A stretch of 64,000 nt of DNA from Escherichia phage vB_EcoM_WL-3, in sequence record MT968995.1. One strand, 5' to 3'. Position 1 is the stretch's first letter; each line of letters starts with the position of its first letter. Shown here piece after piece: positions 13,945 to 52,931 of the stretch. The position numbers and the translations under genes are program-made. Below the pieces are notes generated by a model that saw only the letters and a program-made list of their open reading frames with translations, ran no database searches and was not told where the DNA came from.

Positions 13945-14190
13945 TTAACCGCCAGTTACTTTCCACAAATCTTCATTTGCAGCAATCCATTCAGTACGTT
14001 GATTTTCTTCATATACTGTAGAATACGCTGCTTTTTCTGAAGGGAATGTCTGGTAATGAGCGCCAGAAATTTTGTGAACATCAGAATAAAGAGGGAAAGC
14101 TACAGAAATTTCCTTTCCTTCAATTTTCTTATTTCCATCTAATTTCTGCTCAAATGTTTTGATATTAACATAACCGCGAGTACTAGCCAT
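13945..14190 (-). CDS. soc: small outer capsid protein Soc
   Basis: 81 aa starting MASTRGYVNIKTFEQKLDGNKKIEG; matches T4 Soc from recall. Confidence 0.9.
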   Translation of the reverse strand: MASTRGYVNIKTFEQKLDGNKKIEGKEISVAFPLYSDVHKISGAHYQTFPSEKAAYSTVYEENQRTEWIAANEDLWKVTGG

Positions 14191-14272: not shown

Positions 14273-14791
14273 TTAATAACCTCGATCTTGACGAGCGAAG
14301 TTTTCAGCATTTTTCAGATAATAAAGTTTAAAGATTTCTTCAGCCGTAAGACCGAGACCTTGGAACATATTCAGAACGAAATGAAGAATATCAATCATTT
14401 CAAATTTAATTTCCAACTGGTCTTGCGGAGACAAATCAGTAATTAGAGTTTCACGGCGTTCACCATGCTGTGACTTCCAAGGTTTCCATACAGCAGATGC
14501 ATCTTTTTCACCATTGCTCATACCACCAAGAGAAGTCAGAAGTTCACGGAATTCATCATCAATGTAATCTTTCTGATTACGCAGCCAATCAACAACTTCG
14601 CCTGCAGTAGCCAAATCATCAGGATGACGGTTATATTCAGGTTTATCTTTAGCTAAACGAACCTGCAAAGATTTCTGCATATCAAGCATAACTTGCAGTG
14701 GGTCTTTTTCGTCACCGAGAATATCCCAGTATTCATTTTGAGCTTTATCAGCGCCTTCGATCAGTTGACTACATTCGTTGAAATGTGGCAT
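14273..14791 (-). CDS. 56: dCTPase / dUTPase (MazG-like NTP pyrophosphohydrolase)
   Basis: 172 aa; position and size of T4 gp56. Confidence 0.8.
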   Translation of the reverse strand: MPHFNECSQLIEGADKAQNEYWDILGDEKDPLQVMLDMQKSLQVRLAKDKPEYNRHPDDLATAGEVVDWLRNQKDYIDDEFRELLTSLGGMSNGEKDASAVWKPWKSQHGERRETLITDLSPQDQLEIKFEMIDILHFVLNMFQGLGLTAEEIFKLYYLKNAENFARQDRGY

Positions 14792-14792
14792 G

Positions 14793-15443
14793 TTATTTTT
14801 CCTTTCTTATGAAGTTTTCTATCATATGTCTATAGCAGATATTAGGATAACCTGCCTTGACAGCTATTTTATTAAATTTTGTGCGCTTAGGTCTATTATT
14901 ATAAACCCATAATTCATAAAGCGCATCATAACTATTCCATATTTCTCCTCGCCTAGGATTTGGTAAACCATATCGAGGTGAATTTTTACCGCTAAATCTT
15001 CCTTTTCGGGCTTTACTCATATTAGTCTTGGCTTCATCGGATATAATTTTACCTTTATGAGCTAGACGCATTTTGGCTTTAGTTTCTTCTGGAGTCTTTT
15101 TACCTTTAATCCATGACGGCTTGCCATATCTAGGATTATTTTCACCCGAGAAAAGAACAGAGTTTTGGATTTTAAGGGTTTCTATTAATCTACTTGTTAA
15201 TTTAACACCTTTATTATATCGCATTAAATTTACAGCATAATGCAATCCTCTCACATCTGGATATATTTTAGTTAATAATCTATGAGCTATAAAATGCTCA
15301 CGCGCAGTTAACTCAACAAGATTGTTTTTGCCATCTGCTCCTCCCATACATCTAGGAATTATATGATGGCGTTCTTTATATCCGCCAAGATGCCGGCATT
15401 TAGCTTTTGTAATTAAAGCCGAATAAATTTTTTGGTAATTCAC
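14793..15443 (-). CDS. HNH homing endonuclease (Mob family)
   Basis: N-terminus ...ERHHIIPRCMGG...NNLVELTAREHFIAH, an HNH signature; paralog of the ORF at 52242-52931; sits where T4 has gene 69/dam. Confidence 0.75.
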   Translation of the reverse strand: MNYQKIYSALITKAKCRHLGGYKERHHIIPRCMGGADGKNNLVELTAREHFIAHRLLTKIYPDVRGLHYAVNLMRYNKGVKLTSRLIETLKIQNSVLFSGENNPRYGKPSWIKGKKTPEETKAKMRLAHKGKIISDEAKTNMSKARKGRFSGKNSPRYGLPNPRRGEIWNSYDALYELWVYNNRPKRTKFNKIAVKAGYPNICYRHMIENFIRKEK

Positions 15444-15513
15444 ATATATCCTTTCAATTCATGGATTAGTAGATTAATTATACAATAAATATATAAAGCA
15501 ATAAGGAGGACAT

Positions 15514-15714
15514 ATGGTACAAAAATTAATGGCACTTGTTAATGCCATAAAAGGTAATAAAAAACGTATAGCTTTTACTATTTCTGCTATGATAGGAATT
15601 TTACTTTGGAATTTTGTTTTATCGCCAGTTGCTATTGCTCATGGCGTTAGTATTCCAGTAATTACTCTTGATACATTCGTAGATTTAGCATTTGCTTTAG
15701 TTGGGTTAATTTAA
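15514..15714 (+). CDS. small hydrophobic membrane peptide (66 aa), plus strand
   Basis: strong SD AAGGAGGA 5 nt before the ATG; lies in the only intergenic space here not covered by minus-strand ORFs; two predicted hydrophobic segments. Confidence 0.5.
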   Translation: MVQKLMALVNAIKGNKKRIAFTISAMIGILLWNFVLSPVAIAHGVSIPVITLDTFVDLAFALVGLI

Positions 15715-16739
15715 ATCTTAGCATATTTAGATAGCCGCATTTTAGCCATCAACCCCTGTGCAATATTATTTTTCATATATTCCATAATTTGTTCAGGGGT
15801 TGCACCTTCCTTTCTAATCATATCATTAACATCTTTTGATTTCCAGGGAGATTTGTCCCAAAACATAACCCTTTCTCCTGCATTAACTAATTTAGTCATT
15901 CGTTTAATAGTGTCAGGATGACGAGGTTCATTATCTAAAACCCATACACGTCTATCTTTAAATGGAACAATTTCTAGGTCTAATTGACCACCCGTAATAG
16001 CTATACCATTTTCAATAAAAAGTGAATCTATAGGTCCTTCTAGAACATATACATCACCATCTTTAACTCGTTCAACACCATAGATTTTTGTTGCCTCAGG
16101 ATAAGCTTTGATGGTGATATATTTTTGAGGAGCATCTTTCTTTAATGCACGTCCTTGAAAAGACTCAGCTTTTCCATTAGCATTATAAATTGGAATAACA
16201 AGACGAGGCTCAGGTATTTCCTTTTTATATGTTCCTGGTGCTATACTATTAACTAATTTAGGCCATTCGGTTGTAAACCAAAGATATTTCCATTTATCCT
16301 TTGGAATACAGCGAGCTTTTACGTATTTTATAATTGGATGATCTTCCGCCAGTTTATCTAATCTAATACATGACGGAAGAGATTTAATTATTTTCTTCTC
16401 AGGTTGTTTAGGAAGTTCTTTAGGTTTTTCTACTGAACGACTTTTACCTTTTTCTTTTCTTATTTCAAAGATATACTCACGATATAAATCAGGTTCAAAC
16501 TCCTTTAAATATATTCCGATTGGTGCATGATAGTTACAGTTGTAACAATGAATATTTCCTTCATTATTATCACCGTAATACCATCCACGGGCTTTATTTT
16601 GGTCGGTTTTTGAATCTCCACACACAGGACATCTAAACCGTAATTTAAAAGTTGAACTATTATTTACTTGTGTGAATTTAGGTAAATGAGCTAATGCACG
16701 GTATGCAAACTCATTATCAATCCAAGGTATTGATGACAT
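15711..16739 (-). CDS. 61: DNA primase
   Basis: 342 aa; zinc-ribbon CPVCGDS...CYNC plus TOPRIM-like region; size and position as T4 gp61. Confidence 0.9.
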   Translation of the reverse strand: MSSIPWIDNEFAYRALAHLPKFTQVNNSSTFKLRFRCPVCGDSKTDQNKARGWYYGDNNEGNIHCYNCNYHAPIGIYLKEFEPDLYREYIFEIRKEKGKSRSVEKPKELPKQPEKKIIKSLPSCIRLDKLAEDHPIIKYVKARCIPKDKWKYLWFTTEWPKLVNSIAPGTYKKEIPEPRLVIPIYNANGKAESFQGRALKKDAPQKYITIKAYPEATKIYGVERVKDGDVYVLEGPIDSLFIENGIAITGGQLDLEIVPFKDRRVWVLDNEPRHPDTIKRMTKLVNAGERVMFWDKSPWKSKDVNDMIRKEGATPEQIMEYMKNNIAQGLMAKMRLSKYAKI

Positions 16740-16741
16740 TT

Positions 16742-16906
16742 TTACTCTTCTTTTTCTTTAGATTCCTCTTTTTTCTTTTTAGGAATCTGTTCAGGACCTT
16801 TATTTACTACAGCACCTGATATTGTTCCAGTAGAGATATTTTCAGGATTACCACCTGAATCTCCAGCAACCATATCTTCTTTGATAAATTCTTTATATGT
16901 TTTCAT
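16742..16906 (-). CDS. hypothetical small protein (54 aa; 61.1 position)
   Basis: hand-translated MKTYKEFIKEDMVAGDSGGNPENISTG...; fills the gap after gene 61. Confidence 0.35.
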   Translation of the reverse strand: MKTYKEFIKEDMVAGDSGGNPENISTGTISGAVVNKGPEQIPKKKKEESKEKEE

Positions 16907-17630: not shown

Positions 17631-17888
17631 CTATTTTAAAACTTTTGCATAATCACATGTTACAAACTGTTTCTCTAGCTTGACGATTTTACGAAAGTAT
17701 CTTTTGCATTGGCGAATCTGCCGCTTCGTAGGGCGAACAGCAAACTTAATAAATTCCACTCGACCAAATGGAGGACTTTCTTCTGCTGGAATATCTAGCA
17801 CCAATTCCCACGTATCTGCAATAAGTGCTTTGAATTGTGTATTTTTCCTAACGTTATACGGAGTAGGTTTAAATAAAACAATATGCAT
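17631..17888 (-). CDS. hypothetical protein (85 aa from internal Met; 61.4 position)
   Basis: track ORF 17631-17930 trimmed to the Met that avoids overlap with dmd. Confidence 0.45.
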   Translation of the reverse strand: MHIVLFKPTPYNVRKNTQFKALIADTWELVLDIPAEESPPFGRVEFIKFAVRPTKRQIRQCKRYFRKIVKLEKQFVTCDYAKVLK

Positions 17889-17889
17889 A

Positions 17890-18072
17890 TTATCCTCGGC
17901 AATCCACTTCACACACTTTCTTGTCATCAATGAAAGCTTTAACTAATGCTTTATTAACTTCAGCATACTGAGTAGTAGCCCATTGAACGTCATCTTTCAT
18001 CATTGTGGTTTCTTTAGTAAACATGCTTTCATTCTTAAACCACCCCATAAAAACTACCTTTACCAATTCCAT
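17890..18072 (-). CDS. dmd: Dmd, discriminator of mRNA degradation (antitoxin against RnlA/LsoA)
   Basis: 60 aa starting MELVKVVFMGWFKNESMF; size and position immediately downstream of gene 41, as in T4. Confidence 0.75.
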   Translation of the reverse strand: MELVKVVFMGWFKNESMFTKETTMMKDDVQWATTQYAEVNKALVKAFIDDKKVCEVDCRG

Positions 18073-21163: not shown

Positions 21164-22006
21164 TTAATCAACTGCTATTGGATGAATAGCATTAAACTTA
21201 TGAAATGCTTCTGATTTTTCTTTACGCGAAACGCACATGCGAAGAACCTTTAATGGCTCGTCTTCTTCACCCAACGATTTTCGTTTTTCAATATTAGAAG
21301 TTTTCCAACGAGCTTGCTCTGGAAACTCTCTATTGATTTGCTCAAGCGCTCTATTATGTTTAGAATTACTACGAATTGAACTGCACCCTCCAGGAGCTTG
21401 TGCTTTTCCAGATACAACCAGATATTTGAACAAGGCCAAATGCGGATAACCTTGATTAATTAAATTGAGAAATGCATACATATCTTCGCACAAATCAATT
21501 TTTCCATACCCAATTTGTTCTGTCGTAAGTTTTCCAAGGTCATACCATGTATTCGTGAATCCATATGAATTTTCACGATAATTACCCCAAGATGAAGTAA
21601 TTTTAAAAATTGGTAGGCGAGCATGACCGTGATAATACCCACAATCCATGGCATCTTCGACGTATTGAATCAATTCATAGAACTGTTCACGAGTCAATTG
21701 ATTGACTTTATCCACACAACGACGATCATCTCTTTTTCGCATTGAACTCATACGAATAGTAGTATCATCGTCAATCATCCAGATTCGTTGACCTGCATAC
21801 ATATCAGTAATTGCTTTACGAGTACCGGCAATTCCATTAACATCATCAGGAATAGTTACAATTTTAGCTTTAGACCCATAGGCATCATAATAAGCTTTTT
21901 CTTCATGTTCACGTACTACGATATGAGGTTCATAATCAGTCGGAAACATATCAAGGGCAGAAACTGCCCCTACACGTTGATAGCTCGGAATTACGAATTG
22001 AATCAT
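21164..22006 (-). CDS. putative glycosyltransferase (DxD motif) in the beta-gt slot
   Basis: 280 aa with IWMIDDDTTI; not T4 beta-gt by sequence recall; position fits the T2/T6 beta-glucosyl-HMC-alpha-glucosyltransferase locus. Confidence 0.5.
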   Translation of the reverse strand: MIQFVIPSYQRVGAVSALDMFPTDYEPHIVVREHEEKAYYDAYGSKAKIVTIPDDVNGIAGTRKAITDMYAGQRIWMIDDDTTIRMSSMRKRDDRRCVDKVNQLTREQFYELIQYVEDAMDCGYYHGHARLPIFKITSSWGNYRENSYGFTNTWYDLGKLTTEQIGYGKIDLCEDMYAFLNLINQGYPHLALFKYLVVSGKAQAPGGCSSIRSNSKHNRALEQINREFPEQARWKTSNIEKRKSLGEEDEPLKVLRMCVSRKEKSEAFHKFNAIHPIAVD

Positions 22007-22644
22007 TTAAGTGCCTTACATTTGTCAAAATGGTATCTTGTCATATTTGGCCCACGTCCTTTTAGTCCGCAATGCGGACATATTTTTTCTATCAAATTAT
22101 GAGGTTTTCCTTTACGATTTTTAGACATCGTTTCTTTAATTATTTTAGCTTTTTCTACGCCAAAAATTTCTTCATAAGTTTTACCAGAATTTTCCTTGGC
22201 TCGATTTATAATTCCATATGCCTGCTCATTTTTACCATACATTGGATTACCTTCGCCTTTCATTCTTTTAGAATGATCAGGACGCTTGATTCCACGAAAG
22301 GCATTTCCGCACTTATATCTTTCTTCTGGAGATAGTTTTTTACCGTACATTCCATTTAATTTGCCTGGAAAACTTCCTCCCCATGCTTCATTCTTTAAAT
22401 TATATGAATCCGGACAATTAGCAGCATCTAAACAAGTTAAAATAATTTCTTCAACCTGTCTAAACATTGGTCCTTCATATAATATTTCTTTATTAAAGAA
22501 TTTTATTCCATATTTCTTTTTAGCATGTTGCCAAACTACACCCGAACCATCATAATTCGGGTTGTGACCATCATGACTTCCTATATACCACTTTTTAGTT
22601 TTAGGATGTTTATACTTATAAACATGTGGCACATTTACTTCCAT
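22003..22644 (-). CDS. GIY-YIG homing endonuclease (Seg-like)
   Basis: 213 aa; N-terminal HVYKY...KWYIGSH GIY-YIG-like motif plus NUMOD-like basic repeats; overlaps both neighbours. Confidence 0.65.
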   Translation of the reverse strand: MEVNVPHVYKYKHPKTKKWYIGSHDGHNPNYDGSGVVWQHAKKKYGIKFFNKEILYEGPMFRQVEEIILTCLDAANCPDSYNLKNEAWGGSFPGKLNGMYGKKLSPEERYKCGNAFRGIKRPDHSKRMKGEGNPMYGKNEQAYGIINRAKENSGKTYEEIFGVEKAKIIKETMSKNRKGKPHNLIEKICPHCGLKGRGPNMTRYHFDKCKALK

Positions 22645-52241: not shown

Positions 52242-52931
52242 TTATATAAGTTCCGAATGAGACCCACGTTTAGGTCTATTTAATTTAATCCATAACTTAT
52301 AAAGTAAGTCATAGTCTTGCCAATGTTTACCAGTTCTTTGTCTAATTTTAGATGAATTTGATTGTTTCTTTTTAGTTTCAAAATTATTCAAAGATTTTTT
52401 GACTGCAGCAGAGTGTTTTTCTTTAACTCCCGGTCGTTTAAAAGCAGCTTTCACCCCTTTAGATATTTTTTCTTTAACTTCCGGTTTGTTTTGTGCTTCT
52501 AACTGGGATTCTGAAATTTTAGCCCTTATTTCAGGAAGACTTAATGTTATCGAACGTTTTTCTCTGTATTCATTAGACTTCCACATTTCTTTCATTGTAT
52601 TAGAATGTATTTTTGAAAATTTTTCTCTAACTAACTGATATCCTCTTGAAGTTAATTTGAGATTTCTTCCTAAAGAATCTTCTCCAAAATTATAAAATGA
52701 CCACCATGCATAAATTAATCCAGGCGAATTATAATGAATTTTAGCTAAAAGCCAATGGGCTATAAAATGCTCTCTAGCTGTTAATAAAACTAGATTATCA
52801 GAATCATCATTACCACCAATACAAGATGGAATAATATGATGCTTTTCCGTATAAAAATTTAATTTAGATTTATCTAATTTTCTGAGTTTTCCTTTCTTAA
52901 TTAAATTATTATATACTTTAGTATAATTCAT
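52242..52931 (-). CDS. HNH homing endonuclease (MobD-like)
   Basis: EKHHIIPSCIGG...NLVLLTAREHFIAH; paralog of the ORF at 14793-15443; position as T4 mobD. Confidence 0.7.
   Translation of the reverse strand: MNYTKVYNNLIKKGKLRKLDKSKLNFYTEKHHIIPSCIGGNDDSDNLVLLTAREHFIAHWLLAKIHYNSPGLIYAWWSFYNFGEDSLGRNLKLTSRGYQLVREKFSKIHSNTMKEMWKSNEYREKRSITLSLPEIRAKISESQLEAQNKPEVKEKISKGVKAAFKRPGVKEKHSAAVKKSLNNFETKKKQSNSSKIRQRTGKHWQDYDLLYKLWIKLNRPKRGSHSELI

Follow-up and report, generated by a model that had tools for sequence, protein, structure and literature searches.

A free-standing HNH gene of the Mob family, probably encoding a homing endonuclease, directly upstream of gene 56 in T4-like phages

The window analysed here comes from a T4-like phage of the genus Tequatrovirus and covers the initial 64 kb of its genome; the early genes lie on the minus strand. 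The closest record in the phage collection is 97% identical to it, and 104 of its 111 open reading frames (ORFs) of at least 80 aa have T4 counterparts. Upstream of gene 56, an intact minus-strand ORF (14793..15443) starts with GTG and encodes a protein of 216 aa, which we assign below to the HNH endonucleases. A single base separates its stop codon (14795-14793) from the ATG (14791-14789) of gene 56 (14273..14791, minus), the essential downstream gene for dCTPase/dUTPase, beyond which lies soc (13945-14190, minus). On the other side, dam.1 (15514..15714, plus), a conserved, convergent and hydrophobic 66-aa ORF outside the mobile cassette, marks the far side of the slot between genes 56 and 61; the primase gene 61 follows at 15711-16739 (minus). 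An earlier note on this DNA had described the interval as filled by an HNH ORF and a plus-strand peptide ORF, and both are indeed found there (14793-15443 and 15514-15714).

The HNH protein has a match in phrog_655, a family of homing endonucleases from phages (E=1e-59), and contains NUMOD3 repeats (26.7 bits, compared to a Pfam cut-off of 20.4). In BLASTP, T4 MobE is 62% identical to it over the nuclease domain only (aa 1-81, an alignment of 82 aa, E=1e-32), while T4 MobD aligns over approximately the full length with 34% identity (E=3e-32); matches to MobB (E=2e-19), MobC (E=3e-16) and MobA (E=4e-6) are weaker. A large protein search yielded 2,759 homologues at E<=1e-10. When 59 of these were aligned, residues E24, H26, H27, P30, G35, N41, E49, H50 and H54 were invariant, and the window protein retains all of them. 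The previous assignment as a Mob-like HNH endonuclease is therefore well founded. A glycine in place of aspartate at position 38 (D38G) was considered as an inactivating change in the window protein and rejected, as column 38 is variable in the family.

In an AlphaFold2 model, residues 24-27 and 42-45 are predicted to form strands and residues 47-60 a helix, with pLDDT values of 92-96 over residues 1-70; the invariant residues sit on this modeled strand-strand-helix unit. The layout of the protein thus comprises an HNH beta-beta-alpha domain (about aa 1-95), the NUMOD3 repeats (about aa 100-160) and a C-terminal 53-aa module of the MobD/Seg type that presumably binds DNA, the last 55 residues being modeled with low confidence. 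The Pfam HNH model PF01844 did not match the protein at E<=0.01, and it gave the paralogue at 52242-52931 (see below) 18.4 bits, under the cut-off of 21.4. Among solved structures, neither sequence nor fold comparison returned a significant match, only weak local HNH matches: the best PDB sequence hit was Cas8-HNH (E=0.3), and the top Foldseek match, an HNH domain, had a probability of 0.90 but E=0.38. NCBIfam has no family for the HNH protein and none for dam.1. Because the Pfam HNH and structure matches are weak, assignment to the HNH superfamily is based on the motif, the secondary structure and the homology to Mob proteins taken together. The C-terminal module also occurs in MobD, in SegA, a GIY-YIG enzyme (E=8.5e-8), and in a Seg-like protein (E=3e-16), and the PADLOC "HEase" model matches aa 124-211 (E=1.2e-5). 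A gene 56-binding module common to the HNH protein and SegF was likewise considered; the resemblance is marginal (hhalign E=0.003, probability 10%; hmmsearch E=0.009) and was rejected as evidence.

The gene is intergenic and has the same orientation as genes 56 and 61, as is characteristic of the Mob family. Judged by homology, it belongs to the T4 Mob family of free-standing genes for homing endonucleases. It does not qualify as an orthologue of any of T4 MobA-E, given a best full-length identity of 34% (to MobD) and no T4 mob gene at the 56/61 locus, and it therefore represents a separate lineage of the family. GenBank entries label it variously as "homing endonuclease", "HNH endonuclease", "MobE" or "mobile endonuclease D". 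It is thus an already annotated member of a well-known kind with no characterised function, and our literature search found no paper with a functional test of the protein.

Among seven orthologues, dN/dS of the HNH gene was between 0.05 and 0.26 in 21 of 21 pairs, and the protein is therefore under purifying selection rather than a decaying relic. Several features could nevertheless be read as signs of an inactive gene that persists only since its deletion would harm gene 56 expression, namely the GTG start codon, the unmatched Pfam HNH model, the frameshift in the other Mob gene of the window, mobD, and the length of some GenBank copies (650 or 652 bp rather than 651 bp), which may be frameshifted. 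We consider such a relic very improbable, as the ORF is full length in 55 of 58 records, the invariant residues of the catalytic motif are all intact, dN/dS stays well below 1 even at dS values of 0.4-0.8, and in three of four Tequatrovirus comparisons the HNH gene is less diverged than gene 56.

The borders of the cassette can be defined exactly. It is bounded by a 7-nt direct repeat, GAAAGGA, with the character of a Shine-Dalgarno sequence, and the copies from Tequatrovirus and Jiaodavirus all share one junction. The left-hand repeat copy (15449..15455, minus) lies 5 nt upstream of the GTG and serves as the Shine-Dalgarno sequence of the HNH gene; the right-hand copy (14800..14806, minus) is embedded in the last HNH codons (R-K-E-K-stop) and constitutes the Shine-Dalgarno sequence of gene 56. 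Genomes lacking the HNH gene have the leader ...CCATGAATTGAAAGGAAAAATA-ATG(56), those bearing it ...CCATGAATTGAAAGGA-TATAT-GTG...HNH...ATAAGAAAGGA-AAAATAA-C-ATG(56). Upstream of the left GAAAGGA, the leader is identical to the gene 56 leader of relatives without the HNH gene, and in a multiple alignment it follows the local background, of the dam type or the dam-less type, right up to the repeat.

Within this leader, a promoter-like element (15477..15500, minus) was read by eye, with a MotA-box-like TGCTTTA (15500-15494), an 11-nt spacer and TATAAT (15482-15477). The arrangement fits the consensus of T4 MotA-dependent middle promoters, and on this consensus the element is a putative middle promoter. 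It precedes gene 56 where the HNH gene is missing, and it is retained from one genus to another (TTGCTTAC in T4, TCGCTTTA in Dhakavirus). A generic sigma-70 scan gave no more sites than in shuffled sequence and missed the MotA-type element. Since the borders lie between the gene 56 leader with its promoter-like element on one side and the gene 56 ATG on the other, the HNH gene is a cassette that has no promoter of its own and is embedded in the transcription unit of gene 56. A comparable arrangement, with reliance on upstream promoters, is described for several mob and seg genes of T4 (PMC2988022). RNA hairpins that hide the ribosome-binding site occur in several T4 endonuclease genes; no hairpin masking the HNH ribosome-binding site was found in comparison to shuffled sequences (z = 0.48).

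According to the earlier note, T4 carries gene 69 and dam between genes 56 and 61, and in the window a mobile endonuclease seems to have replaced them or invaded the interval. With respect to T4, this is correct for dam and mistaken for gene 69. Gene 69, which we take to be an older designation of segF (Belle, Landthaler and Shub 2002), was never part of the 56-61 interval, because segF is found across gene 56 from it. The gene order in NC_000866 is soc, segF, 56, dam, 61, and the T4 interval contains only dam and dam.1, a small plus-strand ORF that is conserved there together with its ribosome-binding site, carries no annotation in the T4 RefSeq record and is named dam.1 in the T6 record. A published table gives soc/56 as the insertion site of segF and gene 56 as its target (PMC2988022). 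Across T4-like phages, the 56-61 interval is a variable slot, holding dam, a T2-type 181-aa ORF, a 94-aa ORF or other cargo.

No methyltransferase gene was detected in the window itself, in agreement with the earlier note: tblastn with Dam gave a best E of 0.65, and no methyltransferase domain was found in the four real window-specific ORFs, which lack T4 counterparts, or in a Seg-like ORF at 22003-22644. Nor was dam found in the part covered (10-167.8 kb) of G4498, a relative that also has the HNH gene and no dam. Conversely, the HNH gene is missing from T4, T2 and T6. Neither of the two observations that the note had named as refuting it was thus made. An endonuclease cassette that had replaced T4-type 69 and dam would account for a window with HNH and no dam, and for the small number of HNH-dam junctions, which we found in 3 records (2 phages), or 3 of 33 Tequatrovirus-type records with the HNH gene. 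Against this, close relatives display all four combinations of the two genes. The HNH gene without dam is seen in the window, GRNsp7 and G4498; neither gene in vB_VIPECOOM01, T6 and several IMG/VR loci, among them L010 and L012; both genes in ELT1 and in IME537, the latter with an extra ORF as in T2; and dam alone in T4 and T2. The HNH gene therefore did not replace dam. In ELT1 and IME537 the two genes stand side by side with the same HNH/56 junction as in the window, and generally this junction is base-for-base identical with or without dam, while the dam indel is delimited separately, some 60 bp further upstream than the point where the HNH gene is inserted. Moreover, in the phage collection dam was found in 184 records, compared to 796 with the region, so that lacking dam, as about three quarters of the region-bearing records do, including T6, is the majority state. 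Together with the position of gene 69/segF across gene 56 in T4, these observations leave a replacement with hardly any credibility. Going by the compared sequences, HNH and dam come and go independently of each other, as presence/absence polymorphisms at two neighbouring but distinct points, and it is the invasion part of the claim that is supported, in view of the patchy, cross-genus occurrence of the cassette.

Among the 50,697 records of the phage collection, of which 796 match the surrounding region, the HNH gene is present in 58, corresponding to about 7% of the records having the region. All copies examined lie directly upstream of gene 56, and they come from at least three genera: Tequatrovirus, Jiaodavirus (Mexia, Kpn5N) and Dhakavirus (VR5), in addition to two metagenomic T4-like contigs. 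Full-length orthologues share 55-93% protein identity, with 80% and 55% for the two contigs. Membership in Jiaodavirus of the Mexia relatives that carry the gene has been reported, and the gene lies upstream of the dCTPase gene in Kpn5N and is missing from the 95%-identical Kpn6N (PMC9960720). The gene is thus optional at a fixed site between close relatives: genomes with and without it have flanks that are 96-98% identical, the borders are exact, and the sequence upstream of it is of three kinds, without dam, with dam, or with dam and an additional ORF.

The gene has also moved horizontally. Between the window and Klebsiella phage Mexia, DNA identity is 90.5% for the HNH gene as opposed to 66.7% for soc, 67.7% for the primase gene and 72.7% for gene 56. 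Within Tequatrovirus, the HNH genes of ELT1, IME537 and G4498 differ from that of the window by 0.9-1.2%, the adjoining gene 56 by 4-6%; as the HNH gene is less diverged than its neighbour in these comparisons, a recent spread is indicated.

The same distribution bears on the question of whether the HNH protein is kept mainly for the benefit of the phage, by marker exclusion, damage to co-infecting genomes or an effect on gene 56 expression, with selfish spread being secondary. Only about 7% of the region-bearing records carry the gene, near-identical phages manage without it and no partner gene is evident, so we regard a primary benefit to the phage as unlikely, in spite of the strong purifying selection (dN/dS 0.05-0.26), an association with gene 56 old enough to extend down to 55% protein identity, the provision of the ribosome-binding site of an essential gene by the cassette, and precedents for endonuclease-mediated competition and anti-defence amplification (PMC11620839; PMC13096335). 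Such a benefit would, in any case, be compatible with homing and would require the same nuclease activity.

Sequence linked to the HNH gene extends into gene 56. The first 34 nt of gene 56 (14758..14791, minus) co-segregate with the HNH gene and are a candidate co-conversion tract, immunity site and target site. In every Tequatrovirus and Jiaodavirus genome with the HNH gene, the first 30 nt show 0-1 differences from the window, compared to 5-9 differences in genomes that lack it and whose gene 56 is otherwise about 95% identical; the binomial probability of this excess is 1e-6 for vB_VIPECOOM01 and 6e-5 for L010. Mexia shows 0 of 30 differences here versus 29% elsewhere in gene 56 (P = 3e-5). 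Identity of the window to Mexia stops at nt 34, the last tract difference from vB_VIPECOOM01 is at nt 28, and past nt 34 the linkage is lost even across genera. The flank upstream of the HNH gene has no linked tract and shows the local background up to the ribosome-binding site. Horizontal spread is thus accompanied by apparent co-conversion of a flank, with about 91% identity between genera for the gene as against 67-73% for its flanks and a linked stretch of 28-34 nt.

The allele of the gene 56 5' end found with the HNH gene reads ATGCCACATTTCAACGAATGTAGT. The codon changes in the tract are GCA to CCA, TAC to CAT, TTT to TTC, AAT to AAC, TCA to AGT and TTG to CTG, the latter four of the six being synonymous. 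The tract encodes M-A-H-F-N-E-C-S-Q-L-I, the most conserved block of gp56 among 42 loci. As far as the sequences can tell, the pattern is that expected if the enzyme recognises or cuts the conserved block in genomes without the HNH gene and the allele of the carrier is protected.

The association is not strict in all cases. At the VR5 orthologue locus, the tract is only partially recoded, and the HNH-type Ser-8 codon, AGT, is also present in about a dozen loci without the HNH gene. In addition, the complete HNH-type 5' end, including an extra "AC", is found in a few genomes without the gene (L013, L028, PD112, CE1 and EC128); these ends resemble either the outcome of a deletion between the two GAAAGGA copies or a site as it was before insertion. 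The linked 30 nt could also be donor sequence that hitch-hiked from the original insertion instead of a target or immunity site. As free-standing endonucleases often cut hundreds of base pairs from their own gene (PMC2988022), the true cleavage site may lie elsewhere.

A homing endonuclease that cleaves elsewhere nearby, deeper in gene 56, in dam.1, in gene 61 or in the leader, with the 30-nt tract as hitch-hiking donor DNA, is the alternative to which we give most weight, albeit as one that is distinctly less probable than cleavage at the tract. Free-standing T4 endonucleases usually cut away from their own gene, and the MobE nick lies at nt 122-126 of nrdB (PMC2988022, PMC2790892); gene 56 is mosaic throughout, with about 96% identity to VR5 over nt 90-300, and HNH-type 5' ends do occur in genomes without the gene. 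However, the upstream flank is free of a linked tract, linkage ends at gene 56 nt 34 across genera, and the tract coincides with the most conserved gp56 block and differs by partly synonymous changes, as would an immunity site.

We therefore favour, and hold to be quite probable, that the gene is an intronless homing element aimed at the start of gene 56. The cassette, about 660 bp long and lacking a promoter, sits between the gene 56 leader with its promoter-like element and the gene 56 start codon, where it takes over the old gene 56 ribosome-binding site for the HNH gene, while the last HNH codons (R-K-E-K-stop) provide gene 56 with a new one; equipped with the old and the new ribosome-binding sites, the HNH gene and gene 56 would thus be read from one transcript. 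By analogy to MobE and SegF, the protein may act as an endonuclease that, upon co-infection, nicks or cuts the DNA of a relative lacking the gene in or near the first 30 bp or so of gene 56, after which recombinational repair would copy the HNH gene along with the adjoining 28-34 bp from the donor. The carrier would be immune, its own, recoded copy of gene 56 probably being a poor substrate.

The earlier note had also pointed to a second, paralogous HNH gene at 52242-52931, and this gene is confirmed, with 35% identity to the first (E=3e-29). It is a minus-strand mobD orthologue (52242..52931), occupies the nrdC.11/mobD.1 slot and shares 97.8% identity with T4 MobD; its last 36 residues are frameshifted owing to 2 nt inserted at about 52261-52262.

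Gene 56 of the window is only about 75% identical to the T4, T2 and T6 alleles, whereas its flanks are 89-97% identical; over nt 90-300, it shares about 96% identity with gene 56 of the Dhakavirus VR5. By these comparisons, gene 56 is a mosaic with cross-genus tracts. Endonuclease genes occur on both sides of gene 56 in some phages, the HNH gene and segF in Mexia and two HNH genes in the IMG/VR contig L042. In T4, oriA is annotated at record position 16763, equivalent to gene 56 nt 23, which falls inside the HNH-linked recoded tract (nt 4-28); nicking there, or displacement of the promoter, could therefore alter origin use. Conceivably, then, gene 56 is contested from two sides, by the HNH lineage at its 5' end and by SegF-type or other HNH enzymes at its 3' end, which would jointly drive the cross-genus mosaicism, and HNH nicking at oriA or the 660-bp displacement of the promoter would change origin use such that the element affects replication initiation as well as inheritance. 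We offer this extended scenario as a speculation with a slim chance of being right.

For the T4 map, our analysis implies a correction, as gene 69/segF belongs outside the 56-61 interval, and the lack of dam in the window phage turns out to be an ordinary, independent polymorphism that it shares with T6, not a consequence of the endonuclease. A Mob-family lineage without prior characterisation is now defined, with exact cassette borders and a candidate target in the first 30 bp or so of the dCTPase gene. The cassette clearly illustrates how, in nature, a free-standing endonuclease gene has spread between genera together with a very short tract of co-conversion, and this spread helps to account for the mosaicism of gene 56 in T4-like phages of phage therapy collections. 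The practical value of the finding is small but real.

Among known systems, the intron-encoded enzymes I-HmuI and I-TevIII resemble the HNH protein in that an extended region for DNA binding follows their HNH nuclease domain; unlike it, they are encoded in introns and cleave where the intron is inserted or close by. According to a citation in PMC2790892, I-HmuI nicks its DNA substrate. T4 MobD is the only T4 Mob protein that aligns with the HNH protein over its full length, and both have the C-terminal 53-aa W..YD.LY.LW...RPKR...GYP module. Its gene resides at a different locus, the nrdC.11/mobD.1 slot, and is clearly paralogous rather than orthologous to the HNH gene; PMC2988022 (Table 1) lists MobD with neither a known target nor demonstrated activity.

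T4 segF, like the HNH gene, encodes a homing endonuclease, is free-standing and adjoins gene 56, which is also its target (PMC2988022, Table 1), the target being a candidate one in the case of the HNH gene, and the two genes together flank gene 56 in Klebsiella phage Mexia. In contrast to the HNH protein, SegF has an unrelated, GIY-YIG catalytic domain, and its gene is located 3' of gene 56; a sequence search of the 64 kb did not find segF in the window. The resemblance of the SegF C-terminus to the HNH module is marginal (E=0.009, hhalign probability 10%).

T4 MobE differs from the HNH protein in its length of 141 aa, without the NUMOD3 repeats and the C-terminal module, and in its locus and target, nrdB as compared to gene 56. 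In addition, the mobE ATG overlaps the nrdA stop codon and the gene has an internal terminator, while the HNH gene starts with GTG and has its own ribosome-binding site. Nevertheless, MobE has the nuclease domain closest to that of the HNH protein (62% over aa 1-81), and both are encoded by promoter-less genes just upstream of a conserved gene of nucleotide metabolism, nrdB in one case and gene 56 in the other. MobE, encoded between nrdA and nrdB, nicks the 5' region of nrdB in phage lacking mobE, and genomes that carry mobE are polymorphic at the nick site (PMC2790892).

Relative to the alleles of T4, T2 and T6, the window gene 56 (dCTPase; 14273-14791, minus strand) shows only about 75% identity, compared with 89-97% in its flanks. 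Within the gene, nucleotides 90-300 share about 96% identity with Dhakavirus VR5, and the adjacent bins differ by 30-50%. Gene 56 of the window is a mosaic. The replication origin oriA of T4, annotated as a point feature at NC_000866 16763, corresponds to nucleotide 23 of gene 56 and lies inside codon 8 (TCA/AGT/GCT); this codon is also the core of the polymorphic tract at the start of the gene that co-segregates with the Mob-family HNH homing endonuclease gene (HNH gene; 14793-15443, minus strand).

The VR5 orthologue of the HNH gene (L009 2498-3160) begins with an ATG that is preceded, at a distance of only 6 nt, by a TATAAT element, and it lacks a ribosome-binding site. Its N-terminal nuclease domain has diverged from that of the window protein, to which the C-terminal two thirds show a far higher similarity, a distribution that suggests domain-wise exchange.

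Endonuclease-like genes also occur elsewhere in the window. The orthologue of T4 mobD, a paralogue of the HNH gene (52242-52931, minus strand), has 99.4% nucleotide identity with its T4 counterpart. Compared with the latter, it bears a 2-nt TC insertion at about 52261-52262, by which the last 36 residues are frameshifted and the C-terminal module is lost; this mobD is either a pseudogene or the product of a sequencing error. A Seg-like ORF of 213 aa (22003-22644, minus strand) matches NUMOD3 weakly and bears a weak GIY-YIG resemblance to the N-terminus of SegF. It adjoins a TAGT-family glucosyltransferase gene (21164-22006, minus strand) that has no T4 counterpart; in G4498, a relative with the HNH gene and without dam, this enzyme is annotated as a beta-glucosyl-HMC-alpha-glucosyltransferase.

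On the opposite strand of the interval between genes 56 and 61 lies dam.1 (15514-15714, plus strand; phrog_2024), a convergent ORF for a hydrophobic 66-aa peptide, named after the T6 record. The gene 61 stop codon falls within the overlap with this ORF. The ORF and its ribosome-binding site are kept in T4, T2, T6 and further genera (46-54% identity); the T4 counterpart, at about 17738-17938 of NC_000866, carries no annotation in the RefSeq record. Antisense to dam.1, within its 5' end, a terminator-like hairpin with a T-run (15529-15548, minus strand) may terminate gene 61 transcripts. The HNH/56 unit has its promoter-like element a short distance downstream of the hairpin.

In the IMG/VR contig UViG_2974741249 (L042, 600-4700), the HNH gene is followed by an internally deleted copy of gene 56, a second, N-terminally truncated copy of that gene, a distinct HNH gene of 265 aa occupying the segF slot, and soc; fragments are repeated within the primase region. 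Either the assembly is chimeric, or the arrangement reflects a local duplication associated with an endonuclease. In other T4-like genera (loci L019, L020, L022, L032, L033, L041, L045, L059 and L060), the 61-56 slot is occupied by a conserved ORF about 94 aa long (MN.QQH..LKL.EECNEV...), joined at some of these loci by ORFs of 108 aa or 250 aa; this makes the 61-56 interval a general hotspot for cargo.
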